Positions 1-15,204 of a stretch of DNA of 15,204 nucleotides are shown here, in pieces. Origin of the DNA: a virus. Location of the stretch: IMG/VR virus record IMGVR_UViG_3300038974_000388, positions 1-15,204 of that record. The stretch is one strand, 5' to 3'. Within the stretch, counting starts at the first letter, position 1. Each line of letters opens with the position of its first letter. Made by a program: the position numbers and the translations under genes. A model generated the notes under the pieces. The model had not been told where the DNA came from. It saw only the letters and a list, made by a program, of their open reading frames with translations, and searched no databases.

Positions 1-55
1 GGTTGAACTTCTCGCTCCAGGTATTTTCAGCCGATACGGAAATTTGCTTGATGAT
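1..55. repeat. Terminal direct overlap identical to 15150..15204 (circular closure of the sequence)
   Basis: The first 55 nt (GGTTGAACTT...GCTTGATGAT) recur exactly as the last 55 nt. A minus-strand ORF reads in frame across the join. Confidence 0.95.
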
Positions 56-61
56 CGCCAT
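1..61 (-). CDS. 5' end (ATG at 61..59) of a wrap-around 100-codon gene whose remainder is 14908..15204; small virion-module protein of unknown function
   Basis: AAGGAAGG RBS lies 6 nt upstream of the ATG (62-75). The frame continues into 15204..14908 once the 55-nt overlap is collapsed. Hand translation: MAIIKQISVSAENTWSEKFNLSGDTDGF...GPCLITVEQ. Confidence 0.7.
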   Translation of the reverse strand, partial: MAIIKQISVSAENTWSEKFN

Positions 62-106
62 TTTTTACCTTCCTTTTGGGATGGCGGGAGCCGTAGCCCC
101 CGCCTA

Positions 107-140
107 TATGGTATCATACCGTACCGTCCGGTATGGTATG
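107..140. repeat. GGTAY/GTACC motif cluster A in the intergenic gap between the 138-aa gene and the wrap-around gene
   Basis: ATGGTATCATACCGTACCGTCCGGTATGGTATG. The 13-mer GTACCGTCCGGTA (121-133) is identical to 8400-8412. Confidence 0.6.
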
Positions 141-149
141 TTTCACCTT

Positions 150-563
150 CTAGGCCTGGATATGGGCCTTGAAGTTGATGCCCGTCGCCACGGTGCCGGC
201 TACGGTCGTGTAGAGGCGGACATAAGGGTAAATGGTGCCCTTGTACTCGTTGCGGAAGGGGACCATGTACCGGCCCACGGTGCTGTCAGCATTGCCGCCG
301 ATGACCTCATTCGCCCCGAGGTTCAGACAAGCAAGCTCGACGATCACTTCGTCCCCGGTGGAGAAGTCGGACACGTCGCTTCCCTGAAGCGCAATGGAAT
401 AAAGCTCGGTCGCGTCGACCTCGATGGCGGACACGTCCACCACAAGGAAGCCTTCGACCAGGCCGGCGCCCACGTTGACGATCACGGCTTCGGAATCCAC
501 GGTTCCCGCTGCGGACTCGGCAACCAGGCCCGCGTCCTTCAGGATCATAGTGCTATCAATCAT
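150..563 (-). CDS. 138-aa head-module protein, possibly a capsid decoration/cement protein (function uncertain)
   Basis: Start trimmed to the ATG at 563, preceded by TAGGAGGTGG, in which the TAG is the capsid-gene stop. It lies immediately downstream of the major capsid gene. The sequence looks beta-rich, and I recognise no family motif. Confidence 0.45.
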   Translation of the reverse strand: MIDSTMILKDAGLVAESAAGTVDSEAVIVNVGAGLVEGFLVVDVSAIEVDATELYSIALQGSDVSDFSTGDEVIVELACLNLGANEVIGGNADSTVGRYMVPFRNEYKGTIYPYVRLYTTVAGTVATGINFKAHIQA

Positions 564-573
564 GGTCCACCTC

Positions 574-1491
574 CTAGGCGTTCTTGATGCCGCGCAGACG
601 TGCGGCGGCCTTCGGGTGAAAGACACCCATGCCACAAATCCACTCGATCAGGGTTTCGTACTTGGTGGAGTTCAGGCCCAGGTCCACCACGTCCATGGCT
701 CCCGCCTGGAGGCCGGACACCCACTCAGCCGCGCCGAAGCGGACGGCATAGATGGAGGTGCAAACGCTCTTGTCGCCGTTGTCCAGGTCGGGTTCGGTGA
801 AGCCGAGGATCTCGGCGCCGTCCTTGTCCTGCTCGATCACGGCAATGGGAATGCCCGCGTAGGCCGCAATCTGACGCCCGAAAGCATCGGAAACGGTTTC
901 CGTGGCCTGTCCAGCCGCCCGCATGAGCGCGTTCACCTTGCGGCGCATGGTCTTGTTCATGAACAGGACGTCCGGGGTTCCCTGGACTGCGTCGATCATT
1001 TCATCGAGCTTTGCCAAGGTCAGGGTGTCGCCGCCGTCGCTCGATCCCATGCTGATAAGCTGGTTCCCGGTCAGGCGCTCTTCAAGACCGTCGAACTCGT
1101 TGGGGTCGGTTTCGGAAGATCCCTTGAAGAACTTCTTCGTGAACTCCAGAGCCGCCGCCTTCGCCTTCATGCCGTCATAGGTGGCGCGAAGGTCGTTCAC
1201 GTTGCCCTGAGTCTTCACCAGGGCACGGTCCACGGCGCTGATGCCGCCCAGGACATACAGACGTTCGGTGACGGGGTTCAGAACGCCCGTGGACTCGGTA
1301 TAGCTGCCGTTGATGCCACGGAAGCCGATACCGGGAAGGGTCTTCTCCTGATTGTAGACGTAGGCCTGACCGTTCACGTTGAAGAACGGGAGGCGCTCCA
1401 GAACCGGAGACACTCGGGGGAAGATCTCGATCACGCCGCGCTGAAGCGGGTTCTGAACCAGCTTTGCGGCTTCCAAAAGAGTAATGCTCAT
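574..1491 (-). CDS. Major capsid protein (presumed HK97 fold)
   Basis: 305 aa, sitting directly after a scaffold-like gene and the portal. The stop of the upstream gene is embedded in its RBS (TGAGG). Size and synteny are typical of small-phage major capsid proteins. No search was run. Confidence 0.75.
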   Translation of the reverse strand: MSITLLEAAKLVQNPLQRGVIEIFPRVSPVLERLPFFNVNGQAYVYNQEKTLPGIGFRGINGSYTESTGVLNPVTERLYVLGGISAVDRALVKTQGNVNDLRATYDGMKAKAAALEFTKKFFKGSSETDPNEFDGLEERLTGNQLISMGSSDGGDTLTLAKLDEMIDAVQGTPDVLFMNKTMRRKVNALMRAAGQATETVSDAFGRQIAAYAGIPIAVIEQDKDGAEILGFTEPDLDNGDKSVCTSIYAVRFGAAEWVSGLQAGAMDVVDLGLNSTKYETLIEWICGMGVFHPKAAARLRGIKNA

Positions 1492-1502: not shown

Positions 1503-1898
1503 TCACTTTTTGCCGTATCCCTGCGCCATAATGGCTTGCGGGGACATGCCGTCGAAATTTACAGGCGGTTTCCCGCCAGGCCTCTTACTGTCTGGTCCAT
1601 TGGCTTGCTGATTCCCGCCGAAGACGCCCTTCTTGATCGCGGCCCGAAGCCACTTGATCTTCTGAGCCGGGGGAAGGTCCGGGATCACGTCGCGCATGTC
1701 CTCGGGGACCTCTTCCGCCAGCTCGACCGCGATTTCTTCGAGCGCCGCTTCCGCCACCTTCCGCTGATTGACCACCTGGTCGAAGCGGGACTTCGGAATC
1801 ATGTGTTCGCCTTTTTGGTCGGGTGCGTTTCCCGTGTTGCCTTGGACCTGGTCATTCACGCCGCTATCGGGGGCGCCGCCGTTCTGATCTTGAGTCAT
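1503..1898 (-). CDS. Scaffolding protein
   Basis: 131 aa, charged and helix-prone, lying between the portal and capsid genes. The IPKSRFDQVVNQRK segment resembles scaffold/GP20-type proteins. RBS AAAGGGGAAG. Confidence 0.6.
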   Translation of the reverse strand: MTQDQNGGAPDSGVNDQVQGNTGNAPDQKGEHMIPKSRFDQVVNQRKVAEAALEEIAVELAEEVPEDMRDVIPDLPPAQKIKWLRAAIKKGVFGGNQQANGPDSKRPGGKPPVNFDGMSPQAIMAQGYGKK

Positions 1899-1925: not shown

Positions 1926-3230
1926 CTAAATTTTCGTTTCCAGAAATTCGCGGTTCTCGTCCTGGATCTCGACCAGGCGGACCTTGGCTTCATCCCGGGT
2001 CATGTCCGGGTTGCGCTCCAGCATGATGTCCACGGGACTGATGACGCCCATGGTCAAGAGCTGGTCCCAGGTCGCCGCCTGTTTATCCGCTGAAATGTTC
2101 GGCTTCTGGTCGAAGAAGTCGATCACGAGTTCGGCCTTCTCGCTAAACTTCCGTCCGGGGTTGTGATGGTTCCAGACGGTCTTGATCAGGCGGAAAAGCC
2201 GCCGTTCGTAGGCCCTGAAAAGTTCCACGTCGTCCCGACGCAATTCTTCCAGCTCGATGTTCCCGGCCACCTTCGCCACGCCGCTTTCATCGGTCGGGTC
2301 CGTGGTCAGGCTCGAAGCCGGAAGGCCATTGGACACCGCCGCTTGCTTCAGGAGGAAGTCCAGGACCTCCAAGGCCTCGGTCACGGGAGCGGACGTCTTC
2401 GCATAGCCAAGTTCACCGTCTGCGGGCAGATTGAAGAATCTCCCCGGGTCCACGTTCGTGAGTTCGCCCTTCATGCCCTTGACGTATCCGACGCCGAAGC
2501 CCTGCATCCGGAGCACATAGAGAAGGTCGGTCAGCTTCTCGTTGAAGGCCTCCTGGAGACTGACCAGGTCCGCCGCCCCCGGCGTCCAGTATGAATCAGT
2601 AGGAACGCGGTTCCATACGGTTTGATACGGTATGGTACCATACGGGTTGGGTTCGTTCTGTACCGGGTGCCCCCTGTAGTCGAGCCGCTGAAATTCCTTC
2701 GGCGTCCACAAGGAGTAGGTCAGTTCGTCTTCACGCCCGCTTTCCGGGTAGTGCGTGACCATGAAGGACTTCAGGTCCTCGGGAGAGTCCCCGACCGTTA
2801 CGTCGAGAATGTCCGGGGTCACCAGGTCCACGTCCAAGGCCCCATTTCGCCAGACGGGACGAAGCGCCACCAAGCCCAAGAGCTTGCTGTACCGGTTCGC
2901 CAGCTTCCACTTGGCCCCGAGCCAGGCCCCGCGCTCGATCTCCTGAAAGATCTCGTTGTCCCTGTCCGTCCCCTCGACCTTGCGCCGCGCATCCTGGACA
3001 TAGACCATTGCCAGACGGTTGATGACCTTCCGGACGATGTTCACAAAGCAAGGTGTCAGCTTGTCGGGGTCCGTGAAATGGAGCGCCAACGCTTCCTTGA
3101 TGTAGTCCGTCTGGAAGTCGTGGTAATAGTCCAGCCGCTTGGCCGCTTCCGTCTTCCGCTGTCTGGTGGCTTCCTGTATCGCCGCATTGAACGAGTCCCG
3201 GACCAGGTTTCCGGCTTGGGAAAAAATCAT
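1926..3230 (-). CDS. Portal protein
   Basis: 434 aa from the ATG at 3230 (RBS AGGAAGG). The 16-codon upstream extension in the ORF track lies in the repeat-rich intergenic region. The gene sits between terL and the scaffold gene, and its size is typical of a portal. Confidence 0.8.
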   Translation of the reverse strand: MIFSQAGNLVRDSFNAAIQEATRQRKTEAAKRLDYYHDFQTDYIKEALALHFTDPDKLTPCFVNIVRKVINRLAMVYVQDARRKVEGTDRDNEIFQEIERGAWLGAKWKLANRYSKLLGLVALRPVWRNGALDVDLVTPDILDVTVGDSPEDLKSFMVTHYPESGREDELTYSLWTPKEFQRLDYRGHPVQNEPNPYGTIPYQTVWNRVPTDSYWTPGAADLVSLQEAFNEKLTDLLYVLRMQGFGVGYVKGMKGELTNVDPGRFFNLPADGELGYAKTSAPVTEALEVLDFLLKQAAVSNGLPASSLTTDPTDESGVAKVAGNIELEELRRDDVELFRAYERRLFRLIKTVWNHHNPGRKFSEKAELVIDFFDQKPNISADKQAATWDQLLTMGVISPVDIMLERNPDMTRDEAKVRLVEIQDENREFLETKI

Positions 3231-3294: not shown

Positions 3295-4962
3295 CTATAT
3301 GGAACGGTACGATTTCACACCGCCGACATTCACCAAAGACTTGAAGAATTCCGGTAATGTAAGATCACTTTCTTCACGAATGGAACGGTGTTGAAGATAC
3401 ATTCCCTCACAACGCACATGAGCCGGACACTTCACGGCACAAGGAAGGATCAAGTCCCCCTGGCGAAGATAGCACATTGGCGCATGTCTTGACCGACTGT
3501 CGCAAATTATGTCCGGCAATTCATAGACCGCAAGTTCCCTTGCCCGAAGACTGTAAACCGCCCACGCCAACGAATAGACGCGGTCGTCGTGGTGCTTGTC
3601 CGTCCCGAACTTCGGCTTGTCGCCCTTGAGTTCATAGAAAAATGTCTCCATTTCCCGAACCAATTCTTCGTTCTTATCCGAGAAATGCAACCGCCCTTCC
3701 CGCACAATACGGTAAAGCTCCATGAAGGCCGGGACCTGAGCCGTAGAGGTCGCGTGAATGATCTCCGAGGGAATCCGCTGTTCCATGGCCCAGGTGGCTA
3801 TATCCTGCGCGTTGTAGGCCTCGATGACCACGTTCTTCAGGTCGTACTTCTCGAAGTCCCCTTGGATCTCCTTCTTGATCGACCGGCCCAAGCTCCCCAG
3901 GACGTTCTTCTGGTTCAATATCCAGAAATGAGGCTCCCCGCCGTCTGCGTCCGCCACCTTCGCAACCGAAGTCCATATCGTCGCGTCACCGTGGAGGCTC
4001 CCGAAATAGGCACGGTCAAGACCGCCGCCCGTCGCGTATTTCCGGCCCGCCGCTATGTCCTGCAAGCCCTCAGCCGTGAGAGGGTGCGGGATCTTCTCCC
4101 GGCAAGCCTGAATGTCCGGGACCGCGAAAAGACTATTCGCCGCCGCGCTGCGCTGGTTCAAATGCTGAGTTGCAAAGACCGCCGGCAAAAGCTGTTTCTG
4201 ACGGCTCCGGAGCCAAGCCCGATCAATCCAAGGCGGAGACTTCTCGACCGCCTCTTCGACGTCCCGGTACTCGATCCGGCGAACAAAGACCGTAGGGTCT
4301 TCCCCGGACTCCTGGAGCTGTTCCAGCCGATGAAGGGGACCGCCCACGCCGTCCACCGTCGAGTCGAGGAGCAACCAAGATCCTTCCGTATCGCCAAGAG
4401 ACGACGCCAAGACCTGCATAGGGTCTTCAGACGCCGCCGCGTGAATCTCCGACACCCAACCGCATGTCACCTTTTCGCCGTACAGGCCCGACACGTTGCA
4501 GGACACGGCCTGAATCACGTTCTGAAGTTTCGGGTGAAGGATGTCATAGGCCCTCAGGTTCTCCCGCCCGACCTGTCCCAGAAGGAAGGGGGTGTTCAGG
4601 ATGACCTTCTTGACCAGGTTGAAGCCTACGGAAAGGGTCTGGCGTTCGCTGTTCGCCATAACCTTGATGTTCTCGTTCGGCCCAAACAGGGTGAAGCGCC
4701 ATACAACCAGGAGCGCGTTCAAGGTCGTCTTCGAATGGCGCCGGGGGAAAGAGAAGGCTATCGTCTGGTGAAGCCACTTGCCCGAGTCGTCCCGCGCCAA
4801 CGCATCCCGGACCGCTTCGACCTGGAAGACCGCCGGCTTGAAGATCTCGAAGCCCCCCTTCTTGGACGGGATACGCGGCTTCACGTCTTCCACCCATTTG
4901 AGGAAGCCCTCAGCCCCCTGACGCCACGCTAGGACGTCCTTGGAGGTGAAGCCGGTACTCAT
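3295..4962 (-). CDS. terL: Terminase large subunit
   Basis: 555 aa from the ATG at 4962, which overlaps the stop of the upstream 58-codon ORF (ATGA). There is a Walker-A-like PRRHSKTT (4723-4746), and the C-terminal half is typical of a nuclease domain. The gene lies upstream of the portal. Confidence 0.9.
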   Translation of the reverse strand: MSTGFTSKDVLAWRQGAEGFLKWVEDVKPRIPSKKGGFEIFKPAVFQVEAVRDALARDDSGKWLHQTIAFSFPRRHSKTTLNALLVVWRFTLFGPNENIKVMANSERQTLSVGFNLVKKVILNTPFLLGQVGRENLRAYDILHPKLQNVIQAVSCNVSGLYGEKVTCGWVSEIHAAASEDPMQVLASSLGDTEGSWLLLDSTVDGVGGPLHRLEQLQESGEDPTVFVRRIEYRDVEEAVEKSPPWIDRAWLRSRQKQLLPAVFATQHLNQRSAAANSLFAVPDIQACREKIPHPLTAEGLQDIAAGRKYATGGGLDRAYFGSLHGDATIWTSVAKVADADGGEPHFWILNQKNVLGSLGRSIKKEIQGDFEKYDLKNVVIEAYNAQDIATWAMEQRIPSEIIHATSTAQVPAFMELYRIVREGRLHFSDKNEELVREMETFFYELKGDKPKFGTDKHHDDRVYSLAWAVYSLRARELAVYELPDIICDSRSRHAPMCYLRQGDLILPCAVKCPAHVRCEGMYLQHRSIREESDLTLPEFFKSLVNVGGVKSYRSI

Positions 4963-5135
4963 AGACCGAACCTCATGCAAAGACGCCCTAGGAAGCCCAG
5001 GCGCTTAAATAAGGCTATCTGGACGTGTCGAAGGATGATCTTGGTTGCAGGGGTCAGGAGGCGCTTAGGTACGCCCAAGGCGCGAAGCTCCCGTTCCATG
5101 TCCCGCTTCTCGAAGGTGTCCATGATCTTGATCAT
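4959..5135 (-). CDS. Untracked 58-aa ORF translationally coupled between terS and terL
   Basis: Hand translation: MIKIMDTFEKRDMERELRALGVPKRLLTPATKIILRHVQIALFKRLGFLGRLCMRFGL. Its ATG overlaps the terS TGA (ATGA at 5132-5135), and its TGA overlaps the terL ATG (ATGA at 4959-4962). A GGGGGG run lies 3 nt upstream of the start. Confidence 0.55.
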   Translation of the reverse strand: MIKIMDTFEKRDMERELRALGVPKRLLTPATKIILRHVQIALFKRLGFLGRLCMRFGL

Positions 5136-5620
5136 TCGCCCCCCTGGTTGCTGGCAATGTCCAGGACCGCGTCCGCCACATCGAGGACGCCGCCGTTCGA
5201 CTTCTGTTTCCGCTCGATCTTGATCAAGGCTTCAAGCGCCTTTGTCTGAGCCGCTTGGAACTTCGGGAAGTCCCGTGTCAGCATTTCGGGAATGACGCCG
5301 CCCTTCGAGACAAGCTCCCCTTGGTTCTCCTGGACGAAGTCGAGTATGGCCCTGTTCACCGTGGCATAGATCGCTATGTCGTGACGAAGGAGCGCCGCCG
5401 CCACCTTCTCGGGATCTTCTCCCAAGGCTTCCTTGACCGCGTTGAACTGCATCGCCGTCTTCGTGCGCTGGTCGAGGGTTCCTTCCTGAAGCGCCGCTAG
5501 GATACCGTCCACGTCCCGAGGCTTGCGCTTATTTCGGCCCACCTCTTCAGGAGCGCCCGCGCCGCGCCAAGTTCCATCCGGATTCCGAAGGCGTTCTTTT
5601 GGTTTCTTCCTGTTCGCCAT
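5132..5620 (-). CDS. terS: Terminase small subunit (putative)
   Basis: 162 aa from the ATG at 5620 (RBS AAAGGAAA). It has a basic N-terminus (MANRKKPKERLRN), lies directly upstream of terL, and is of typical size. The 83-codon upstream extension in the ORF track runs through the repeat region. Confidence 0.6.
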   Translation of the reverse strand: MANRKKPKERLRNPDGTWRGAGAPEEVGRNKRKPRDVDGILAALQEGTLDQRTKTAMQFNAVKEALGEDPEKVAAALLRHDIAIYATVNRAILDFVQENQGELVSKGGVIPEMLTRDFPKFQAAQTKALEALIKIERKQKSNGGVLDVADAVLDIASNQGGE

Positions 5621-5706
5621 GGTCGATAATTTCCTTTCCCTTCTGGTGTCAGTATTTTGACATAAGCCATTGAAATTCAAATTTAAATGATTGGTCCATC
5701 GTTTAA

Positions 5707-5995
5707 GGTATTTCCACTTTTCTTTCAGGTACTTGCGGAGTCGTGGCCCTTCGACCTGATCCGGGGGGACAAGGACACCTTTTTTCCTGTCCTTCTGGTG
5801 AAGGTACTCTTCCCGTCCTTCGGTACTCTGAAAGGTACTCAGTACTTTGGTACCTAAGTCCCTTCCCATTTCCCCTTCCCGTCCCCCTCTTAGGTACTCT
5901 GAAGGTACTCTGAAGGTACTCTGAAGGTACTATTCCCGAAAGGTACTGAAGGTACTCTCCCCTATAGGGGAGTACCGTACCTAACTCTGAGTACT
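5707..5995. repeat. Iteron-like RGTACY array with an 11-bp tandem block, a 16-bp palindrome and a C-run tract; candidate ori and/or pac region
   Basis: RGTACY hexamers start at 5728, 5803, 5822, 5834, 5841, 5849, 5893, 5904, 5915, 5926, 5942, 5951, 5971 and 5990. GGTACTCTGAA is repeated tandemly in 5893-5931. The perfect palindrome CTCCCCTATAGGGGAG is at 5957-5972. An AT-rich stretch at about 5640-5700 adjoins the array. Confidence 0.7.
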
Positions 5996-7971: not shown

Positions 7972-8363
7972 GCGGACACCTCCCGTCTGAGGTCCAAAAG
8001 TTGCTTGGTCACCTCGATTGCTCGGGGATCGTTGCCGCCGTGGCGGTCAGGATGGCAAAGGACGATCAGGTCCTTGATGAATGGCTTTATGCGGTCGAGG
8101 ACTTTTGATCCTGCGCTTGGAGGTGGCTCCGGGCTGTACCCGTTCTGCTTCGCCAGAAGGGAAAAATATAAGCCTCGGTAGAACTCGGAATCACGCCGAA
8201 GACGGTTCAGCTCGTCACGGTCAACGAAGACGCTGTCGGGGTCCGACTCGCCGCGCTCCATGGACTTTCGACGCTTGAAGCATTTGATGCAGACGGTCTT
8301 CCACTCTTCGCCATAGTCGTGGTGGAAGGACTCTCCGCAGTCTGAACAATATTTGTAGGGCAT
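7968..8363 (-). CDS. Zinc-ribbon protein with a C-terminal J-domain-like segment (HPD motif)
   Basis: 131 aa from the ATG at 8363 (RBS AGGAGG). The N-terminus has CSDCG...CIKC. The C-terminus, IKDLIVLCHPDRHGGNDPRAIEVTKQLLDL, matches helix II-HPD-helix III of DnaJ J domains, with the HPD codons at 8046-8054. Confidence 0.55.
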   Translation of the reverse strand: MPYKYCSDCGESFHHDYGEEWKTVCIKCFKRRKSMERGESDPDSVFVDRDELNRLRRDSEFYRGLYFSLLAKQNGYSPEPPPSAGSKVLDRIKPFIKDLIVLCHPDRHGGNDPRAIEVTKQLLDLRREVSA

Positions 8364-8398
8364 AGGGGTTGCCTCCTGAGGCTTCCCCAAGCTGACGT

Positions 8399-8448
8399 GG
8401 TACCGTCCGGTACTGAATGGTACCGTTTAGTACCGTTTGGTACTGTAT
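8399..8448. repeat. Five RGTACY units at exact 10-bp phasing (cluster D) upstream of the replication operon
   Basis: GGTACCGTCC GGTACTGAAT GGTACCGTTT AGTACCGTTT GGTACTGTAT, with units starting at 8399, 8409, 8419, 8429 and 8439. Confidence 0.8.
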
Positions 8449-8484: not shown

Positions 8485-8558
8485 GTTACCACGCCGAGAG
8501 AATTTTATTTCTCTCCCCCCAGAAGCCCAAGTACCATGTCGCTTGGGCTTTTCTTTAT
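8485..8558 (+). ncRNA. Candidate ~70-nt countertranscript RNA with two stem-loops
   Basis: Hairpin 1 is GAGAGAA/TTCTCTC (8496-8515). Hairpin 2 is AAGCCCAAG/CTTGGGCTT (8523-8550), followed by TTCTTTAT, so it has an intrinsic-terminator shape only on the plus strand. No plus-strand CDS lies nearby. Confidence 0.3.
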
Positions 8559-8755
8559 CTCATGGTGATTGGCGTCGAGGTTGTCTTCCTGTCCCTCGGC
8601 GCGTACTCGCCGCAAAAATTATTCGCCGCCGACATAGGCCACGCCTCTTTTCCCGCCCTCGGGGATCTCCGGTGACATTCGCCAAGATCCTTCCCTTCTT
8701 CCGTCTGGGGCGCGAACCAGTAACGACATTTCCGGCATTCCATTCCGTTACTCAT
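8555..8755 (-). CDS. 66-aa Cys-rich miniprotein (CxxC...C...C), function unknown
   Basis: ATG at 8755, with AAGGAG 9 nt upstream. The pattern ECRKCRYW...GECHRRSP...WP...NFCGEY recalls small hypothetical phage proteins. Confidence 0.6.
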   Translation of the reverse strand: MSNGMECRKCRYWFAPQTEEGKDLGECHRRSPRAGKEAWPMSAANNFCGEYAPRDRKTTSTPITMR

Positions 8756-9381: not shown

Positions 9382-9645
9382 TTATTTTTTTTCTTCGATA
9401 ATTGCTTGAATTTCCTTATCAATCGCCGCCAAGACAACCTTTTTGATAAAGCCCTGAATGCTACCTGGTCTGTGCTCTTTGATGAACTGGAGCTTCGCCA
9501 GCTCGACTTCGGACAGTCTCAGGTTGAAGCCCTTCATCACTCTGGGGTCAAGGTCGGCCCACGGAAGACGATCATATTCTTCCTCAGCCGCGCCGATGAA
9601 TTTTTCGGCCTGGTCCAGGGTAGGACGGGGGTTGAACTTCGTCAT
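9382..9645 (-). CDS. Ribbon-helix-helix partition/centromere-binding protein (ParG/omega-like partner of ParA)
   Basis: 87 aa. Its ATG overlaps the ParA TGA (ATGA at 9642-9645). FNLRLSEVELAKLQFIKEH...SIQGFIKKVVLAAI fits a strand-helix-helix pattern. Confidence 0.6.
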   Translation of the reverse strand: MTKFNPRPTLDQAEKFIGAAEEEYDRLPWADLDPRVMKGFNLRLSEVELAKLQFIKEHRPGSIQGFIKKVVLAAIDKEIQAIIEEKK

Positions 9646-10289
9646 TTGAAAAGCTCCTTGTAAAGCTGTCGGATTTCGTGCGCCGCATAGGACGCCGCTT
9701 CGAACTCGGGGACCGACTTTCCCGCGCCGCTGGCCCGCCGGTATGCAATCCGTTCTGACAAGGTGGTCCTGATCAGTGTCATGTCGGGGAACTCGCCTTC
9801 GATGAATTCCCGGGCCTCCTCGGCTTCCTTCACGGAAGGGTTCGTACTGGCGAAGTTGAGGACCACGAAGACGGCAATCTCCGGGTTGATGACACGGGCC
9901 TCATTCACCAGGCGGTCAATGGTCGAAAGGCTCCACAAGTCGAACTGAGAAGGCCTGACCGGGACCAGAAGGACGTCCGCCACCAGGAGCGCCGCTCGGA
10001 GTTCGACCGAGTCGCGCCCGCCGGCGTCGATCACTATGTCCGAAAATTTTGGAGCAAGGGTCTTGATCTCCTGATGAAGGCCCTTCCCTGTCAGTTGTAC
10101 CGTGGTCACCTTCGGGAGCTGGTCGTCATTCAAGCCCTTCCTGAGCGCCGCCCACATGGAGCTTGAAAGCTGTTTGTCCGCGTCCACCAAGAGGACGTCA
10201 CGGCCCTTGCTGGAGGCCTGAGCCGCCATGTTCACGGCAATGGTACTCTTGCCAACTCCGCCCTTCTCCGCGCCGCATAGAAGAATCAT
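9642..10289 (-). CDS. parA: ParA-family partition ATPase (small, type Ib)
   Basis: It carries the deviant Walker A GAEKGGVGKST. It is about 215 aa from the ATG at 10289 (GAGGTG 5 nt upstream) and has no N-terminal HTH extension. Confidence 0.9.
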   Translation of the reverse strand: MILLCGAEKGGVGKSTIAVNMAAQASSKGRDVLLVDADKQLSSSMWAALRKGLNDDQLPKVTTVQLTGKGLHQEIKTLAPKFSDIVIDAGGRDSVELRAALLVADVLLVPVRPSQFDLWSLSTIDRLVNEARVINPEIAVFVVLNFASTNPSVKEAEEAREFIEGEFPDMTLIRTTLSERIAYRRASGAGKSVPEFEAASYAAHEIRQLYKELFK

Positions 10290-10328: not shown

Positions 10329-10658
10329 TCAAGACGCCTGAGCGCGTTCATTCCCGATCAACCGCGCATCGCAGAATTTTCCCGCCACGCCTTCCTTCTC
10401 GTTCTCTTCCGCGTAGGTGTATCGGGTGACGCTGATGCTCCCGACCTTGCGGTCGATAATCTCGAAGGCTTCGTCCATAACTCGCTTCTGGTTGAGAAGG
10501 AGAACGTCGAGGACGCGGGCACAAAGAGCGGGGTGTCCTTCCCCGGGGACGAACTGTCCGTCCACGCCTTCAAGGATCTGGGTGAAGGCCACGATAGGCT
10601 TGAAGGAGTCTTCCAGAATGTCTTTCAGGTCTTCGGACCAGGTGTCTCTTGGTTCCAT
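10329..10658 (-). CDS. 109-aa acidic protein, function unknown
   Basis: The ATG at 10658 is preceded by GGGGGAG, with the upstream TAA stop between the SD and the ATG. It has a clear excess of Asp/Glu, and I recognise no motif. Confidence 0.6.
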   Translation of the reverse strand: MEPRDTWSEDLKDILEDSFKPIVAFTQILEGVDGQFVPGEGHPALCARVLDVLLLNQKRVMDEAFEIIDRKVGSISVTRYTYAEENEKEGVAGKFCDARLIGNERAQAS

Positions 10659-10660
10659 GG

Positions 10661-10954
10661 TTACTCCCCCAACCTGTCAGACAGATTTTCCATGATTTCG
10701 AAAATATGGTCGGCTTCCTGCCGAAGCATGATCGCCAGGGTCCCGCGCTCTTCCTTGTCGAAGTCCTCGAATTCCCAAAGGGTCCGGCCCATGAACTTCA
10801 GCCGGTTCACGGATTCCAGAAGACGATCAAGGTCTTCCTGATCGACCTTGCGCCGCGTTTCCCGGTTGCTGTCGCAATTCGCGCATGAACGGTTCCCGAC
10901 GCACATTTCAGCCTTGCGTTCCGCCTGAGCCGCCAATACTTGTACTTCAGCCAT
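10661..10954 (-). CDS. 97-aa acidic, coiled-coil-prone protein with a CxxxxxCxxC patch, function unknown
   Basis: ATG at 10954, with AGGAGG 8 nt upstream. Confidence 0.6.
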   Translation of the reverse strand: MAEVQVLAAQAERKAEMCVGNRSCANCDSNRETRRKVDQEDLDRLLESVNRLKFMGRTLWEFEDFDKEERGTLAIMLRQEADHIFEIMENLSDRLGE

Positions 10955-11024: not shown

Positions 11025-11315
11025 CTATTCGACTCTAAGGACCTTCTCCATTTCGCTGGTGGGGATGAACCATCTTCTCGGACCGATCTTCTTGCCCTTG
11101 ATGACGCCTTCCTTCAGCCATTTTCTGACCGCCGCCGGGGTGACACCGATTCGAGAAGCGAACTCGATTGTCGTTATCATTTCCGGCTTCGGCTGTTCGG
11201 CCTTTGTCTTTTGTTCCATCATATTTCTGAATGCCTCCTGACGTTCTGGGTCCATCCCCTGAAGGGATCTCTTCAGCTCGATGAAGTCCGGGTCATTGAT
11301 CAAATCGTCTTTCAT
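11025..11315 (-). CDS. Excisionase-family HTH DNA-binding protein (possible RDF or AlpA-like regulator)
   Basis: 96 aa from the ATG at 11315. Its RBS TAGGAGG contains the recombinase stop codon. The C-terminus, ITTIEFASRIGVTPAAVRKWLKEGVIKGKKIGPRRWFIP, matches the HTH_17/excisionase pattern. Confidence 0.7.
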   Translation of the reverse strand: MKDDLINDPDFIELKRSLQGMDPERQEAFRNMMEQKTKAEQPKPEMITTIEFASRIGVTPAAVRKWLKEGVIKGKKIGPRRWFIPTSEMEKVLRVE

Positions 11316-11326: not shown

Positions 11327-11998
11327 CTACGCGGCCTTTTTCAGCACGTTCGCCACGGTACCGAAGGACCACGGCTTGCCCGTCTTGGTGAAGACGCCGT
11401 CCCGGTTCAGGGTGTCGGCAATCCGTTGAAAACTGTATCCCTTGGCCCGAAGGTTCAGGATCTTGGTCATGGTGGCTTGTTCTTCTGGGTTCTCAACCAG
11501 GCGTCCGTCCTCGGTCACGTTGAAGCCGAAGGGGACCTTCCCCCCGAGCTTCTCCCCCTTGGACTTCTTCACCGTCAACGCGGCCCTGGTCCGCTCCCCG
11601 ATGGTTTCCCGCTCCCACTCGGCAACCGAGGTCAGGAGGTTGAGAACGAAGCGCCCCGAGGCGGTCCGGGTATCGATTTGCTCGGCCACGACAAACAGGT
11701 CGAAGGCGTCCCTGAAGTATTCGTCCAGAAGACCGCCCATGTCTCGGACGGACCGTGTCAGACGGTCGAGCTTCGCCACGACAAGCCCTTCGGCTTCGCC
11801 CCGCCTGAGCGCCGAAAGCGCATCCTGAAGGCCTGAGCGCAGGAGGTTCTTGCCGCTGGCCGCGTCCTTGTGAATCTCGACCAGCTCCAGGTCATAGAGG
11901 GAGCAATAAGCCCGGATCTTCTCCGTCTGGTCGGTAAGGCCAAGACCTGAGGCCTCTTGTCCGTCCGTACTGACTCGAATATATCCCATGACTTTCAT
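11327..11998 (-). CDS. Serine recombinase, short form (resolvase catalytic domain + 'recombinase' domain, no zinc-ribbon/coiled-coil)
   Basis: 223 aa from the ATG at 11998 (RBS AAGGAGGGGGAG). The catalytic motif is YIRVSTDGQ, and the E-helix segment is GRFVLNLLTSVAEWERETIGERT. The segment GGKVPFGF...GKPWSFGTVANVLKK is typical of the large-serine-recombinase RD domain, but the protein ends there. Confidence 0.9.
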   Translation of the reverse strand: MKVMGYIRVSTDGQEASGLGLTDQTEKIRAYCSLYDLELVEIHKDAASGKNLLRSGLQDALSALRRGEAEGLVVAKLDRLTRSVRDMGGLLDEYFRDAFDLFVVAEQIDTRTASGRFVLNLLTSVAEWERETIGERTRAALTVKKSKGEKLGGKVPFGFNVTEDGRLVENPEEQATMTKILNLRAKGYSFQRIADTLNRDGVFTKTGKPWSFGTVANVLKKAA

Positions 11999-12154: not shown

Positions 12155-12190
12155 AAAAAAAGGTGGCGCAATAGTGAACTATTGCGCCAC
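12155..12190 (-). terminator. Intrinsic terminator T2 formed by a 28-bp perfect palindrome
   Basis: GTGGCGCAATAGT-GA-ACTATTGCGCCAC (12163-12190). On the minus strand the stem is followed by CTTTTTTT (12155-12162). Confidence 0.6.
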
Positions 12191-12267: not shown

Positions 12268-12284
12268 CTATTGCGCCATGTCGG
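12268..12284. repeat. Third copy of the palindrome half-site plus flank
   Basis: CTATTGCGCCATGTCGG matches CTATTGCGCCACGTCGG (12179-12195) at 16 of 17 positions, in the same orientation, 89 bp away. Confidence 0.7.
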
Positions 12285-12388: not shown

Positions 12389-12844
12389 TTATTTGGATTG
12401 TCGTCTGGCCCACCATGCCAAGAGCAAGGCGTCTGCTCGGCCGTGGTCCTTTTTTCTGGAAAGCTCCACGTCAGGGAAAAGACGCCTTGCCACGGTGATA
12501 GCGCGGGCCTTTGTGTCTGCTCCATCTGAAGTGGTCACCAGGCCCTTTTGCCACTCCTGCGGTCTTGTCATGACGTAGGGGACAAATAGCGCAGACAGGA
12601 CGCCTTGCCACTGCCCGAGGTTCTGCCCGAAGGTGAACATGCTTTTCACTCCCTGCCCCGGCATGGCGTGAACGCTCTCCAGGGCCGCGAGTTCGATATT
12701 GAATTCGGTGCGCCACTCCAGCAGCAGTTCAGCAGCCCCGGCCGCGTCTCCCGGCCAATCCTCGACAAGCTGACCGTCACGATGAACGAGGGCGATTGCT
12801 CCGTTCTTGCCGGGATCAATCCCGATCCATGCACATGGCTTCAT
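12389..12844 (-). CDS. RuvC-like Holliday junction resolvase (phage type)
   Basis: 151 aa. It has WIGIDPGKNGAIAL at the N-terminus, an internal acidic E, and HGRADALLLAWWA near the C-terminus, matching the RuvC-fold catalytic pattern. Its ATG overlaps the upstream TGA (ATGA at 12841-12844). Confidence 0.75.
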   Translation of the reverse strand: MKPCAWIGIDPGKNGAIALVHRDGQLVEDWPGDAAGAAELLLEWRTEFNIELAALESVHAMPGQGVKSMFTFGQNLGQWQGVLSALFVPYVMTRPQEWQKGLVTTSDGADTKARAITVARRLFPDVELSRKKDHGRADALLLAWWARRQSK

Positions 12845-13026
12845 CCTCTAGGCTCCTTGGCGGTTATCGTGGCCGGTCCTGTTCGTTCCCGCAGTTCCTT
12901 GACCTCGGCCTGTAGTTTCTGGATCTCGGACCATAACTTGCGCGTCCGGCTGTCGATCATGCTTTCGAGTCCATGAACCTCATCTTCGAGCGTCTGGACG
13001 CGGTCGGGAAGGTCGGGGTGTCTCAT
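12841..13026 (-). CDS. 61-aa coiled-coil protein, function unknown
   Basis: Heptad-like LEDEVHGLESMIDSRTRKLWSEIQKLQAEVKELRE. It is translationally coupled to the resolvase gene, but its own RBS is weak. Confidence 0.5.
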   Translation of the reverse strand: MRHPDLPDRVQTLEDEVHGLESMIDSRTRKLWSEIQKLQAEVKELRERTGPATITAKEPRG

Positions 13027-13044
13027 GGTCTGCCTTTGGAGAAA

Positions 13045-13082
13045 GTCCCCTTCTGGCCGGTGGTGGTAAACCAGAAGGGGAC
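13045..13082 (-). other. 12-bp perfect stem-loop in the gap between the Zn-ribbon and coiled-coil genes
   Basis: GTCCCCTTCTGG (13045-13056), a 14-nt loop, then CCAGAAGGGGAC (13071-13082). The minus-strand tail is TTTCTCC. Confidence 0.5.
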
Positions 13083-13095
13083 GGTGCTCAGGAGG

Positions 13096-13326
13096 TTAAG
13101 CACTGAAATTTTCTGAATGGACGACTTTGACGCCGCCCTTGGGCCTGTCGTTGTACTCCCTGAGGAAGGAGCATTCCCAATGACCAAGGAACTTCTGGCC
13201 GCACTGCCGGCACTGATACCGCTGTTCATAGAGGAAAGAGGTCAATGCCCTTGGCCCGTGGATCTTGTATGTCTCTTCACTGCCGCAAGACAGACATGGT
13301 ATTCGTGGCCGGCGTCCTTCCACCAT
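13096..13326 (-). CDS. 76-aa zinc-ribbon protein (CxxC...CxxC), function unknown
   Basis: CLSCG...CRQCG. The ATG at 13326 is preceded by TGAGGGA, which contains the MuF-like gene stop. Confidence 0.6.
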   Translation of the reverse strand: MVEGRRPRIPCLSCGSEETYKIHGPRALTSFLYEQRYQCRQCGQKFLGHWECSFLREYNDRPKGGVKVVHSENFSA

Positions 13327-13333
13327 TATTCCC

Positions 13334-14428
13334 TCACAATTCCGAAAGTCTCTTGATTCGACCGTCCGCGCTCATGTTCTTGAGTTCGAGCTTCCCGGCC
13401 TTGAACAATTCGAACCTGGTCTTCCCCAGGACCGACTTCACGAAGTCCGGGTCCTTCTCCACCTGGCGCTTCATCCACGCCTGATAGGTTAGGCTTTGCG
13501 GGACATGCTCCACGGACTCGACCTTGAACTTGGTACTGGTGCTTCCGTCCCGGTGATGAACGGTTCGGCCTGAATGCTTGACCGCCGGACGGGTCCCTTC
13601 TTCCATTTCGTCCTTGTCGATCCCGAGTTCCCGCCATGTCGGTGGAAGGGGAATGTAGACGCATCGGCAAGCCCAATGACGCGGGAGTACAGGCCGGGAC
13701 TCATCCTTCTTGAAGATCCGACCGTCTGTCGGCCCACAGACAAGACAGGTCCGTCTGTCCAAGGTGGCGCTGTACTTCCAGCCGACCACGAAGTCGTCAA
13801 AGTCCCTCTTGATGACCTCTTCCTTGGCGTAGTGCGCCGCCGACTGAAGCCAGGTCCGAGCAAGGCCATTCAAGCCCGGTACGCTGCCTTCTATGCCCTT
13901 CTGGCGCATGAGCCGCGCCGTTGCCTGAGCGCCGAGGCCTTCGACCATGGCTTGACGTCCTGACGATACGATACGGTCAACCGCCAACTGTTCGAGCTTC
14001 TTCAGCCAATCATTCACCAGGAGGCCTTCCACCTGGCTCATCTCGAACCAGGAGGTGACCGCGTCCTTGGGGAGCTTGGCGAAGGATACCGAAAGGCCGA
14101 GCGCCGCGTTCATGGTGGCCGTGGTCGAGGCTCCAGCCGCTTGAATGACGTCTTCCCCGGCTTCCCTGATCTTCTCCCCGACCTCGACATATATGTCTTC
14201 AAGTAGGCGTTCGATCTCCGTCTTCTGAGCGGTCAGAAGCGCCTTCCTGCGGCTTGCGGGTTCGTCCTGGTACTCGCCCTTCAGGATCTTGTCCTGAAGC
14301 CTGGAGAGCTTGCCCAGGATGGAAACGCGGGAGGCCTCCAGGACCTCGACCATTTCCTTGGCAAGCTGGTTGCCCCGCTGCTCGATCCGGTGGTGAAGTT
14401 TCAGGGTGTCGTCCAGGATCTCTTCCAT
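13334..14428 (-). CDS. Head morphogenesis / minor capsid protein, Mu F / SPP1 gp7 family
   Basis: 364 aa, with the family-typical DRRTCLVCGPTDGRIF...LPRHWACRCVYIP core. Confidence 0.85.
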   Translation of the reverse strand: MEEILDDTLKLHHRIEQRGNQLAKEMVEVLEASRVSILGKLSRLQDKILKGEYQDEPASRRKALLTAQKTEIERLLEDIYVEVGEKIREAGEDVIQAAGASTTATMNAALGLSVSFAKLPKDAVTSWFEMSQVEGLLVNDWLKKLEQLAVDRIVSSGRQAMVEGLGAQATARLMRQKGIEGSVPGLNGLARTWLQSAAHYAKEEVIKRDFDDFVVGWKYSATLDRRTCLVCGPTDGRIFKKDESRPVLPRHWACRCVYIPLPPTWRELGIDKDEMEEGTRPAVKHSGRTVHHRDGSTSTKFKVESVEHVPQSLTYQAWMKRQVEKDPDFVKSVLGKTRFELFKAGKLELKNMSADGRIKRLSEL

Positions 14429-14433
14429 GGTCC

Positions 14434-14898
14434 CTACCTGGTCACGCTGAAGGACGCGGCTTCACCGCGAAGGCTTCCGAGGCTCGAAAGCATGAAGACG
14501 ACATGGTCCGGAATGACCTTGACCTTGGTCGTCTGGTCGAAGGCCATACTGACCGAGCCAACCGACATGGAAGCCAGGCCCGCCCCGTCCGGAAGCGCCG
14601 TGGTGTCCGTCCCCTGGAGGACAAGCGCAAGTTCGAGTTGAGCCGCCTTGACCGCTTCGGGGATCTCGTCGGTTTCGACTCCGGAGACACCGCTTCGAGG
14701 CCAGCCCAAGGACTGCCCACTGGTTGCCGGAGTCCCCCTCCACTGAATGTAGAGGTCCAGCATTCGCCGGGACATGAGAAGGACCTTCTCTTTTTCGTCG
14801 TCGGTCGCGTCTTCCCAGGTGTCGGAATAGAGCCGCGCCGCGAAATAGGCGTTCGCTTCTTCGAGGGTCACATAACTATTCGAGGTGTCCAGGGTCAT
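14434..14898 (-). CDS. Head-tail connector/adaptor-like protein (gp6-like / DnaT-like family pattern)
   Basis: 154 aa. The pattern SYVTLEEANAYFAARL...W...EKEKVLLMSRRMLD...GQSLGWPRSG is typical of phage head-tail adaptors. It lies in the head-completion position. Confidence 0.55.
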   Translation of the reverse strand: MTLDTSNSYVTLEEANAYFAARLYSDTWEDATDDEKEKVLLMSRRMLDLYIQWRGTPATSGQSLGWPRSGVSGVETDEIPEAVKAAQLELALVLQGTDTTALPDGAGLASMSVGSVSMAFDQTTKVKVIPDHVVFMLSSLGSLRGEAASFSVTR

Positions 14899-14907
14899 GG
14901 CTTCCCC

Positions 14908-15204
14908 CTACTGCTCGACCGTGATCAAACAGGGTCCGCTTCCGAAGTTGCCCGTCGCAATACCGACGTCATAAAGGCCTTCGACCGGGATGGAGAGGTC
15001 TGTCATGGAGTCCGTGATTTCAATCGCGCTGATAATGGTGGTTCCGTCCGCCGGACTGTAACGCCTAATGGTGACGGTATTGTCCGCGCCGCCGTATTGC
15101 GAAACAAGAGCACGCCTGGCGGGGGTGAAGCCGTCCGTGTCCCCGGAGAGGTTGAACTTCTCGCTCCAGGTATTTTCAGCCGATACGGAAATTTGCTTGA
15201 TGAT
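14908..15204 (-). CDS. 3' part (98 codons + TAG) of the wrap-around 100-codon gene that starts at 61
   Basis: Hand translation gave an open frame from 15204 down to the TAG at 14910..14908. That TAG sits inside the RBS (TAGGGGGAAG) of the adaptor gene. Confidence 0.7.
   Translation of the reverse strand: MIKQISVSAENTWSEKFNLSGDTDGFTPARRALVSQYGGADNTVTIRRYSPADGTTIISAIEITDSMTDLSIPVEGLYDVGIATGNFGSGPCLITVEQ
15150..15204. repeat. Terminal direct overlap identical to 1..55
   Basis: Exact 55-nt identity with the window start. Confidence 0.95.

Follow-up and report, generated by a model that had tools for sequence, protein, structure and literature searches.

A circular 15-kb element with its own head genes and plasmid partition genes: a candidate capsid-forming phage satellite maintained as a plasmid

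The IMG/VR virus record IMGVR_UViG_3300038974_000388 was analysed over its whole length of 15,204 nt (the window; GC content 56.7%). The genetic element that it holds is best explained as a complete circular genome of 15,149 bp. It encodes the parts of a phage head and the enzymes to fill it, together with a primase-helicase, a ParA partition ATPase and a serine recombinase; none of its products matched a tail, holin or endolysin family in searches of Pfam, PHROGs, PADLOC and NCBIfam. We conclude that the element is very probably a capsid-forming satellite that depends on the tails of another phage. Judged from assemblies and gene content, it is probably maintained episomally, and the statement as a whole, that of a capsid-forming, tail-scavenging satellite maintained as a plasmid, is the one towards which we lean. 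The host is most likely a member of the Desulfovibrionaceae.

Results

Closure of the circular genome

The record was traced, via one element protein in Logan, to run SRR24332396 (sample Mill_B_AHD1_180117_1), taken from the anaerobic hybrid digester of a pulp mill in Canada. The run sampled total community DNA, extracted with a soil kit and assembled by metaSPAdes v3.12 at default settings (PMC11556013). Because this was bulk community DNA and not a virome, the element DNA in it is expected to be mostly cell-derived. The two ends of the window are identical:

1..55 (equal to 15150-15204), no strand: assembly overlap, an exact match that gives circular closure and a unique unit of 15,149 bp

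The largest default k-mer of metaSPAdes is 55, to which we attribute the 55-nt overlap, so that the repeat reflects a cycle closed by the assembly graph and not a physical terminal repeat. In the Logan assembly of the same run (k=31) the element is contig SRR24332396_135728, of 15,179 nt, with an overlap of 30 nt (k-1). This contig matches the 15,149-nt unit with 0 mismatches, has its breakpoint at nt 6210 and reads through the junction 15204/1, where an open reading frame (ORF) of 100 codons (ATG at nt 61, stop at 14908) is contiguous. An earlier interpretation of the window, made from its letters (here the sequence-only reading), had deduced both the circle, from the 55-nt terminal repeat, and the junction-spanning ORF. 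Both are borne out, two assemblers having arrived at an identical sequence with different k and different breakpoints. It had also placed every credible gene on one strand, and all 23 called genes indeed lie on the minus strand.

Head and packaging genes

Families were assigned by profile searches of the gene products with Pfam, PHROGs and NCBIfam, and with PADLOC and the PDB for selected proteins. Transcription runs through g19, g20, the large terminase (TerL), the portal, g23, the major capsid protein (MCP), g25, g01, the adaptor Ad1, the MuF-like protein, g04/g06 and a RuvC-like gene to a 327-nt AT-rich gap. After the gap come the serine recombinase, an HTH_17 gene, g10/g11, ParA, g13, g14, g15, g16 and the primase-helicase. 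The features of the first part are:

5132..5620, minus strand: g19, putative small terminase (terS), 162 aa counted from Met84 of the longest ORF, assigned by its position
4959..5135, minus strand: g20, conserved small protein of 58 aa between terS and terL; homologues 48-81% identical, at the same position in relatives
3295..4962, minus strand: g21, large terminase, 555 aa; phrog_9 (6e-23), phrog_38 (4e-12)
1926..3230, minus strand: g22, portal, 434 aa; PF05133 (2e-8), phrog_64 (9e-10)
1503..1898, minus strand: g23, putative scaffolding protein, 131 aa, between portal and MCP; assigned via a relative's protein
574..1491, minus strand: g24, MCP, 305 aa; phrog_212 (1.4e-79), PF20911 (GP7; 3e-16)
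150..563, minus strand: g25, predicted jellyroll capsid cement/decoration protein, 137 aa; modelled fold and a weak phrog_427 match
14908..15149 joined to 1..61 (ATG 61-59), minus strand: g01, small beta-rich protein of the head operon, 100 aa; ORF joined across the junction
14434..14898, minus strand: g02, head-tail adaptor Ad1, 154 aa; phrog_477 (2.6e-31), PF20557 (1.8e-23)
13334..14428, minus strand: g03, MuF-like minor head protein, 364 aa; phrog_241 (4.5e-47), PF04233 (5.7e-9), TIGR01641 (3.5e-10)
12841..13326, minus strand: g06 (61 aa, coiled coil) and g04 (76 aa, zinc ribbon); weak matches, none in PADLOC
12389..12844, minus strand: g07, RuvC-like Holliday-junction resolvase, 151 aa; phrog_1770 (9.5e-32)

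The sequence-only reading had listed a full head and packaging set, and profile matches establish TerL, portal, MCP, MuF-like protein and Ad1; the small terminase is putatively assigned by position and the scaffold through a relative. The g19 product gave no match to terS or any other family in Pfam, PHROG and NCBIfam searches, and in one relative (L139; relatives are denoted here by our labels) a homologue of 162 aa occupies the equivalent position. No family match was found for g20 in Pfam, PHROGs or PADLOC. The g23 product itself has no direct Pfam or PHROG match and is 52% identical to the protein at L142:9546-9971, which matches phrog_206 (head scaffolding) at 4e-4. The MCP is at most 55% identical to those of cultured phages, the best being Bacillus phage PK2 and Paenibacillus phage Tripp, and had no match by sequence in the PDB. 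Ad1 is 31-38% identical to the annotated Ad1 adaptors of such phages as Xp15 and the phiCbK-like Caulobacter phages, which are long-tailed. No HNH or prohead protease family was matched among the element products; a scaffold-like protein and MuF are present instead. Across three diverged circles the head, packaging and adaptor genes have ratios of nonsynonymous to synonymous substitution (dN/dS) of 0.07-0.31.

An AlphaFold2 (AF2) model of g25, built on a 33-sequence alignment (pLDDT 77.6), has as its top PDB folds the cement protein of the Bordetella phage BPP-1 (3j4u_H; TM 0.63, probability 1.0) and a Carin1 capsid chain (8cjz_A). The gene directly follows the MCP gene throughout the capsid clade described below. 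As its fold matches that of a cement protein, g25, the only conserved unknown of the head operon, is predicted to cement or decorate the capsid and is not a tail part.

The head-closure protein Hc1 (phrog_161, 4e-18, at L033:11954-12331, with homologues in L007, L002, L017, L018, L057 and L049) occurs in many members of the clade, of both maintenance types. It is absent from the element and from c155, L139 and L030, in which a variable gene of 100-110 aa (g01 here) precedes the adaptor gene instead.

On the coding-strand ORFs no transmembrane-like segment was found except for one beta-strand of g25. Among the element products we could recognise no receptor-binding gene, no repressor and no Stl-like or ProQ/FinO-like gene. 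PADLOC returned nothing credible as a defence gene for 10 small proteins, and tRNA and Rfam scans of the element returned nothing. The largest product without an assignment is g14, at 169 aa, the same upper bound that the sequence-only reading gave when it argued that tail and lysis genes are missing; that argument is upheld by the negative profile searches and transmembrane scan and by the identification of g25 as cement and not tail.

Integrated and circular relatives

More than 1,600 MCP homologues at E <= 1e-60 were found among 8,000 candidates scored, the top 120 of them at least 73% identical. Identity within the satellite clade is 60-97%, and for many homologues the contigs reach no more than 13-16 kb. 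When species genomes of GTDB were scanned, clade members were placed in Desulfovibrionaceae, Desulfobacteraceae, Desulfarculus and the chromosome of Desulfosarcina widdelii. Megablast of the whole unit against phage and plasmid collections gave no match, and a ParA-based scan of IMG/VR gave no confirmed relative.

One relative, L030, is an island on a 136-kb contig of a Desulfovibrionaceae metagenome-assembled genome (MAG), with identities to the element of 88-89% for the MCP, 81% for TerL, 71% for the portal and 56% for the primase. Its genes are ordered tyrosine integrase, small genes, HTH_17, primase/AAA_25, ERCC4, terS-like, TerL, portal, scaffold, MCP, cement, Ad1 and MuF, and its MuF end is directly bordered by host genes (tRNA synthetase, MacB and BamA). 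The same layout occurs in a relative from Desulfonatronum thioautotrophicum (read on a 51-kb Logan contig, the longest contig of the cluster being 496 kb), in the complete chromosome of Desulfolutivibrio sulfoxidireducens (CP045508) and on contigs of 284 kb and 1.7 Mb. These integrated relatives are islands of ~12-15 kb whose architecture resembles that of phage-inducible chromosomal islands of the capsid-forming kind (cf-PICIs); they lack tails, protease and HNH and have a different capsid type.

Fourteen elements, including the one studied here, are of a recombinase type. Four are closed circles, of 15,149, 15,399, 15,731 and 15,219 bp, with overlaps of 127 nt in the 15,399- and 15,731-bp circles and 24 nt in the 15,219-bp circle. 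The search for syntenic relatives of 14-16 kb that the sequence-only reading had suggested is thereby answered, three circles of 15.2-15.7 kb sharing the architecture. Gene order in this type is conserved even though identity falls to 52% for ParA and 65% for the MCP.

The elements were typed with an integrase profile made from the relatives and by searches with the element's ParA and recombinase. In ~31 typed elements a tyrosine integrase and a serine recombinase (usually with ParA) never occur together. No Phage_integrase match was found among the element products, and the relatives' integrase profile finds none in the recombinase/ParA loci. Contigs longer than 30 kb carry 8/17 of the integrase type and 0/14 of the recombinase type (Fisher one-sided p = 0.003, which is indicative only because the two types were sampled by different routes). 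The genes from terS to MuF and the primase are common to the element and the islands; g04-g16 occur only in the recombinase/ParA type and sit between MuF and the primase, a place taken in the islands by the integrase and the island ends. With a cassette of serine recombinase, HTH_17, ParA and partner in place of the islands' integrase, the element would be kept as a plasmid.

In a neighbour-joining tree of the capsid proteins (computed with no support values) the recombinase/ParA elements occupy at least three separate positions among the integrase elements, and the element is sister to the Desulfovibrionaceae island. This is evidence for repeated switching between integrase and plasmid modules within the clade. 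Compared with two other circles, every gene of the element, parA, g13, the recombinase and g14 included, has a dN/dS of 0.02-0.31, which indicates that the element is under selection as a whole and is not decaying. We give about even chances to a broader interpretation that joins these observations: that the Desulfobacterota clade, with its PF20911 capsid, scaffold, cement and MuF, is a separate origin of capsid-forming satellites, that it has switched between island and plasmid at least three times by exchange of a cassette between MuF and primase, and that the plasmid cassette is common to small mobilizable plasmids.

The idea that the whole capsid clade is tail-less needs qualification, since three loci have a tape-measure-like gene and one of these also a Neck1-like gene. 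The tape-measure-like protein, of ~690 aa (phrog_2854, 1.5e-21), is encoded at L142:805-2895, L027:1999-4083 and L014:1505-3556; after it, L014:3559-3984 encodes a 141-aa Neck1/tail-completion-like protein (phrog_5, 4e-12). The MCPs of this sub-lineage are 70-82% identical to that of the element, and the parts of the loci that were read showed no gene for a tube, baseplate or fibre. These could be satellites with a tape measure of their own, or pieces of larger phages. The element has no homologue of either protein.

Serine recombinase and palindrome

Between the head operon and the partition genes lie:

12163..12190, no strand: perfect 13+2+13 palindrome GTGGCGCAATAGT-TC-ACTATTGCGCCAC, with a third half-site at 12268-12278
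11327..11998, minus strand: g08, serine recombinase, 223 aa; PF00239 (7e-34), PF07508 (2.5e-9)
11025..11315, minus strand: g09, HTH_17/excisionase-family DNA-binding protein, 96 aa; PF12728 (1.6e-5), TIGR01764 (2.5e-4), phrog_10045, phrog_66

The short serine recombinase of the sequence-only reading is confirmed at 223 aa by the PF00239 match. It consists of the catalytic domain and the first half of the 'Recombinase' domain, and its best NCBIfam matches are to the N-terminal 220 aa of CcrB (8e-35), to XisF (3e-25) and to CcrA, with resolvase/invertase models weaker (1e-11). The PF12728 score of g09 is below the Pfam cutoff, and its gene is paired with the recombinase gene and not placed before the primase as in the integrated relatives. 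Recombinase homologues at least 65% identical are almost all on contigs of at most 19 kb. The recombinase-HTH_17 pair also occurs, at 66% identity, on small mobilizable plasmids with a relaxase, NikA, HicAB and a faint Rep3_N match.

Upstream of the recombinase gene, in the AT-rich gap of 327 nt, sits the palindrome. Its arms are conserved in sister elements and its centre differs, being TC in the element, CT in c155 and GA in L147. This geometry would fit a serine-recombinase crossover (res-like) site, for which the palindrome is a candidate. With a variable centre, resolution of dimers, in which each site is paired with itself, would fit better than recombination with a fixed chromosomal attB. 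Scans of JGI and IMG/VR found the palindrome nowhere outside the satellites, a weak test in that an attB need share only the core with attP.

Partition genes and replicon

The genes and repeats on which stable replication would depend are:

9642..10289, minus strand: g12, small ParA partition ATPase, 215 aa; NF041546 (3e-47), PF13614, PF01656, PF09140
9382..9645, minus strand: g13, ParA partner (ParB-like), 87 aa; overlaps the parA stop
6007..7971, minus strand: g17, primase-helicase, 654 aa; CHC2 PF01807 (5e-17), AAA_25 PF13481 (4e-21), Toprim_2 (4e-4), TIGR01391 (5e-24)
5802..5958, minus strand: iteron array, eight copies of AGAGTACCT(TC), several at 11-nt spacing; candidate replication origin
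8398..8447, minus strand: five GGTAC(C/T) repeats at 10-11-nt spacing, upstream of the g16-primase operon
7968..8363, minus strand: g16, Cys-rich protein of 131 aa, translationally coupled to the primase; 70-76% identical in c155, L139 and L147, dN/dS ~0.18

ParA aligns with 203/203 positions of the NF041546 profile at 160.7 bits, under the curated cutoff of 180. It has the deviant Walker A motif KGGVGKS, the ~210-aa size of type Ib proteins and no N-terminal helix-turn-helix, and over its full length shares 43-51% identity with the ParA genes of more than 5000 plasmids. The g13 gene is kept downstream of parA in six elements, with an invariant N-x-R-L-x-E ... S-x-Q motif and a dN/dS of 0.11-0.12. 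A ribbon-helix-helix (RHH) fold is suspected for its product, for which Pfam (at E <= 5) and PDB searches with the single sequence and with a five-sequence profile gave nothing significant. The type Ib ParA/RHH pair of the sequence-only reading is thus sustained for ParA, by profile, size and Walker A motif, while the RHH fold of the partner went unmatched. No array of centromere repeats was found next to the parA operon in a repeat scan.

The primase-helicase was predicted correctly, with CHC2, Toprim and AAA_25 domains matched. Directly 3' of its stop lies the iteron array, adjoining an AT-rich stretch (~5680-5740). The iteron pattern matches 9 times in 15,204 nt (8 of these in the array) against 1.4 expected, and 0/200 shuffles reach 9. 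Its AGTACC core occurs 21 times against 2.7 expected, with 11 occurrences at 5728-5976. Since the GGTAC(C/T) repeats upstream of the g16-primase operon carry the iteron core, they are a candidate operator for autoregulation of the replicon. In the classical layout of iteron plasmids, iterons lie beside the initiator gene and iteron-like repeats at its promoter; origins of phage-inducible chromosomal islands are similar. Just 3' of the primase gene, where the element has its array, relatives carry iterons of other sequence, as expected of cognate initiator-origin pairs and consistent with element-specific origins.

Short repeats in 4-7 copies were seen downstream of the primase/rep gene at L054:9642-10250, at ~8500-9600 in L055 and L137, at L033:4783-6311 and at L017:5144-6565; examples of the element-specific repeats of relatives are AAAAGGACA, ATACCTTCC, ACCCAGACA and CAAGGTGCC. 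The ORF g18 (5703-6017) was rejected as a gene, being the iteron array read as protein. For g16 no significant family match was found in Pfam, PHROGs or PADLOC, and a proposal that it is a J-domain protein, from a C-terminal 'HPD' motif, was dropped when Pfam gave no DnaJ match at E <= 5.

Proposed life cycle and alternatives

As a plasmid, the element would not integrate; it would replicate from the iteron origin as an iteron-controlled plasmid and be segregated by ParA and g13, and its dimers would be resolved by the recombinase at the 28-bp palindrome upstream of the recombinase gene. Growth of a helper phage would lead to expression of the single long operon and the building of small heads. 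A genome of 15 kb fits a head of T=4 size, as in P4 and SaPIs. The element's own terminase would fill these heads from the element's own concatemers, with the RuvC-like enzyme clearing branches; the heads would then be docked via Ad1 to long tails made by the helper, and particles would be released through the helper's lysis system. The sequence-only reading had likewise proposed a self-packaging, tail- and lysis-scavenging satellite kept as a low-copy plasmid. This mechanism is supported, since the circle closes in two assemblies, the head set is real, g25 is predicted to be cement, the related islands are tail-less and long contigs divide 0/14 against 8/17 between the types; low-copy maintenance is suggested by gene content.

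Several points weigh against the reading as a plasmid-borne satellite. The plasmid state is taken from assemblies, and a circle would also be expected where an integrative element is excised, replicating or packaged. Integrase-type islands are found as stand-alone contigs of ~14 kb without host flanks (L031, L032), so a circular or flank-free assembly is not specific to plasmids. The palindrome with its T-run can equally be read as an intrinsic terminator of the head operon. The repeat scan yielded no centromere repeats for the partition system, and the searches returned no match for the suspected fold of the ParA partner. A recombinase 63% identical to g08 is found in a 4.29-Mb chromosome where no capsid gene is close by, and both the preference of g08 for CcrB-like profiles and the excisionase-type matches of g09 suggest integration. 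Without Hc1, head completion may need more from a helper than its tails. Seven small products (58-169 aa) have no family assignment, and the prediction failed for one of them, g14, whose single-sequence AF2 model was unusable (pLDDT 45).

Some of these points would be accounted for if the element were an integrative capsid-forming satellite, its recombinase and HTH protein being an integrase and an excisionase that act at the palindrome as attP. The assembled circle would then be an excised, replicating or packaged form, with ParA needed only for transient episomal replication. It is in this light that the far better match of g08 to the N-terminal parts of CcrB, XisF and CcrA than to resolvases and invertases, the 'excise' TIGRFAM and excisionase PHROG matches of g09, the place of the chromosomal recombinase among other mobile-element genes and the flank-free integrase-type contigs can be understood. 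We nevertheless regard an integrative element as unlikely. At 223 aa, g08 is without the zinc-ribbon and coiled-coil domain that serves att-site synapsis in large serine integrases. None of the 14 recombinase-type satellites is on a contig longer than 30 kb or flanked by host genes, against eight of the 17 of the integrase type. A crossover centre that varies (TC, CT, GA) is hard to square with one attB, and the JGI and IMG/VR scans found the palindrome in these satellites only. ParA and its partner are under purifying selection, and the recombinase-HTH pair also resides on the plasmids with relaxase, HicAB and a faint Rep3_N match.

A cryptic plasmid or degenerate phage-plasmid, which has kept a head module with no transfer in particles or uses capsids for another purpose, would explain why no helper phage, particles or induction signal are known, why Hc1 is missing though many relatives have it, and why there is no recognisable repressor. 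It is improbable in view of the dN/dS of 0.07-0.31 in head, packaging and adaptor genes across three diverged circles, the conservation of the head module in hundreds of clade members, integrated and episomal, and the retention of a head-tail adaptor that would have no role where there is no tail.

We give still less weight to an autonomous miniature virus, whose tail or delivery device would be made from the small unassigned proteins or which would infect without a tail. Seven such products of 58-169 aa are available, and one sub-lineage of the clade does carry tape-measure-like and Neck1-like genes. The element has no homologue of those two genes, however, every product is too small for a tape measure, nozzle, baseplate hub or fibre, there is no transmembrane or lysis candidate, and integrated relatives with defined host borders are likewise without tail genes.

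That the window is a piece of some larger phage genome and was closed wrongly at a repeat is scarcely credible: one 55-mer repeat could by itself yield a 55-nt terminal overlap, but the k=31 assembler closes the identical 15,149-bp unit elsewhere with 0 mismatches, three diverged relatives, each assembled from another sample, form circles of 15.2-15.7 kb with gene order kept, and the junction-spanning g01 is 98% conserved in c155.

Further observations on the element and its relatives

The remaining called genes of the element are:

10329..10954, minus strand: g11 (109 aa) and g10 (97 aa), sharing an operon with parA and lying upstream of it; conserved counterparts in c155, L139 and L147
8804..9313, minus strand: g14, cargo gene of low GC (33%), 169 aa; identified by GC profile, dN/dS ~0.19
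8555..8755, minus strand: g15, Cys-rich protein of 66 aa; relatives 31-72% identical, no family match

Pfam, PHROGs and PADLOC gave no family matches for g10 and g11, and Pfam, PHROG, PADLOC and the PDB none for g14. With 33% GC in an element of 57% GC, and kept in three circles, g14 has the look of cargo that was acquired recently and is under selection; it may encode a regulator or interfere with the helper. The g01 product, with no family match in Pfam, PHROGs or PADLOC, is 98% identical to its homologue in c155 (dN/dS 0.02) and absent from L139, and the genes that flank it are 75-95% identical to their c155 counterparts; this pattern suggests a recent exchange of a small head-operon gene. 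The ORFs g05 and g07b were rejected as genes: they lack homologues and either coincide with better candidates or fall within the AT-rich gap.

The recombinase-HTH_17 cassette appears portable, occurring at 63-66% identity in L143, L144, L145, L134 and L135; the copy in the 4.29-Mb chromosome adjoins restriction-modification, Fic and IS21 genes. Some contigs hold more than one unit. The record IMGVR_UViG_3300035547_000130 (L004 and L008; 27,380 nt) has two units head to tail with 78-94% nucleotide identity, each with its own recombinase and ParA. Contig k141_96576 of ERZ27250302 (L137), read in part, has 29,690 nt, about twice the unit length, and L143 (18,720 nt) contains two different plasmid units, each opening with a recombinase-HTH_17 cassette. 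These may be cointegrates made by the recombinase, or assembly paths through shared segments. The 29.7-kb contig and one of 30.9 kb, both read in part, may each be a dimer, a cointegrate, an integrated copy or a larger phage.

In one sub-lineage, one or two sigma-factor-like genes (Sigma70_r4; phrog_1740, phrog_351) come after the cement gene, at L141:11513-12298, L142:11631-12377, L052:11857-12636 and L027:897-1999, and these satellites may have a late-transcription factor of its own. A capsid gene of the same family, at 35% identity, is on the Acinetobacter sp. plasmid record NZ_CP033863.1 (23,171 bp), which could be a further small capsid-bearing plasmid or a fragment; other Acinetobacter capsid matches are on phage-plasmids of ~110 kb. 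The recombinase/ParA-type element L049 (CAYXEF010000065.1, 15,134 nt) was binned in a Candidatus Cloacimonadota MAG, all other hosts being Desulfobacterota, and it is probably a free plasmid contig that was binned wrongly.

Discussion

No description of this Desulfobacterota satellite clade was found in the searched literature, nor any substantive link between phage satellites and Desulfovibrio. Its members have no protease or HNH and often no integrase, so that current detectors would probably miss them, and pipelines that bin plasmids and viruses would misfile such elements as 'complete small phages'. They could carry gene flow in anaerobic digesters, in sediments and among gut Desulfovibrionaceae. 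Integrated relatives are present in strains that are in culture and have been sequenced in full (Desulfolutivibrio sulfoxidireducens, Desulfosarcina widdelii, Desulfonatronum thioautotrophicum and Fundidesulfovibrio magnetotacticus), which makes helper dependence, head size and the borrowing of tails directly testable. The occurrence of integrase and plasmid variants side by side amounts to a natural experiment on the integrated versus the episomal state. If the broader interpretation of the clade is true, 'island' and 'plasmid' satellites are interconvertible states of one type of element.

Comparison with known systems

Satellite P4 can persist as a plasmid. It has no capsid or terminase genes and normally integrates, in both of which it differs from the element. 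Elements of the P4 type sit integrated in chromosomes in all cases but one, the exception being integrated in a large plasmid (PMC10085698). The Streptomyces satellites MiniFlayer and MulchRoom are reported to have encapsidation genes of their own (PMC10690885). The element resembles P4 and the Streptomyces satellites in that integration is not obligatory, and the latter also in having its own capsid genes. Phage-plasmids such as P1, N15 and SSU5 differ from it in that it has 15 kb and no tail or lysis set; full-size phage-plasmids with homologous capsids are 55-110 kb or larger.

The combination of stability genes recalls plasmid pSM19035 and the inc18 family, in which the beta serine recombinase resolves dimers and the delta ParA and omega RHH proteins complete the set. 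The likeness is one of gene combination alone, namely a serine recombinase of ~200 aa, a small Walker-type ParA and a small DNA-binding partner; the element's recombinase differs in resembling the N-terminal part of large serine recombinases.

The cf-PICIs, of which EcCIEDL933 is an example, encode int, alpA, rep, HNH, TerS, TerL, portal, protease, capsid and two connectors, and no tails (PMC10085698; bioRxiv 10.1101/2022.09.08.507074). Their median size is 14 kb, with ~19 genes, and 966/969 are chromosomal (PMC10085698; bioRxiv 10.1101/2022.09.08.507074). The three known radiations are in Proteobacteria and Firmicutes and, as analysed, have other capsid families. The element shares with them its size range, a primase-type replicon, terS (putative) and terL, portal, capsid and adaptor, the absence of tail and holin genes and a capsid clade apart from phages, and its integrated relatives share the order int, HTH regulator, primase, morphogenesis genes. 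It is unlike them in having no integrase, chromosomal location, HNH, prohead protease or second connector (Hc1), and against the cf-PICI core of SatelliteFinder it would score ~7/11.

The nearest counterpart in lifestyle is the cf-PISP family. The sequence-only reading did not recognise its combination of features as a described class, a view now out of date, since cf-PISP satellite-plasmids were described in 2025/26 from a single Vibrio population. The cf-PISP of Vibrio crassostreae (TG54) is circular, extrachromosomal and 15.8 kb long, has parA, repA and its own recombinase and is without integrase or tails; the term 'satellite-plasmid' was put forward for it, and in no genus but Vibrio did its authors find such elements. 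A full-text literature search found the term 'satellite-plasmid' applied to phage satellites only in the two papers on these Vibrio elements. Both are circles of ~15-16 kb with a full head and packaging set, no tails and no classical integrase, and both encode ParA and their own site-specific recombinase. Each has a capsid gene that falls inside the group formed by those of chromosomal capsid-forming satellites, and the same mechanism, a plasmid that uses helper tails, is proposed.

In their hardware the two are unrelated. The element combines a PF20911 (GP7) capsid with scaffold, jellyroll cement and MuF, TG54 a PF05065 capsid with HNH and a maturation protease. As its replicon the element carries a primase-helicase and iterons in place of the repA of TG54; the recombinase is of the serine type in the one and the tyrosine type in the other, and the hosts are Desulfobacterota and Vibrio. 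The extrachromosomal state of TG54 is read from isolate genome assemblies and that of the element from metagenome assembly. With a PF20911/phrog_212 capsid that belongs to a Desulfobacterota clade, the element is analogous to the Vibrio family and not a member of it: a functional analogue of the cf-PISP in an independent lineage, put together from unrelated parts. If the broader interpretation of its clade holds, satellite-plasmids are a recurrent, convergent solution and not a curiosity of Vibrio; an independent example from a distant phylum, its capsid, replicon and recombinase all unrelated, would mark this way of life as convergent and probably widespread.

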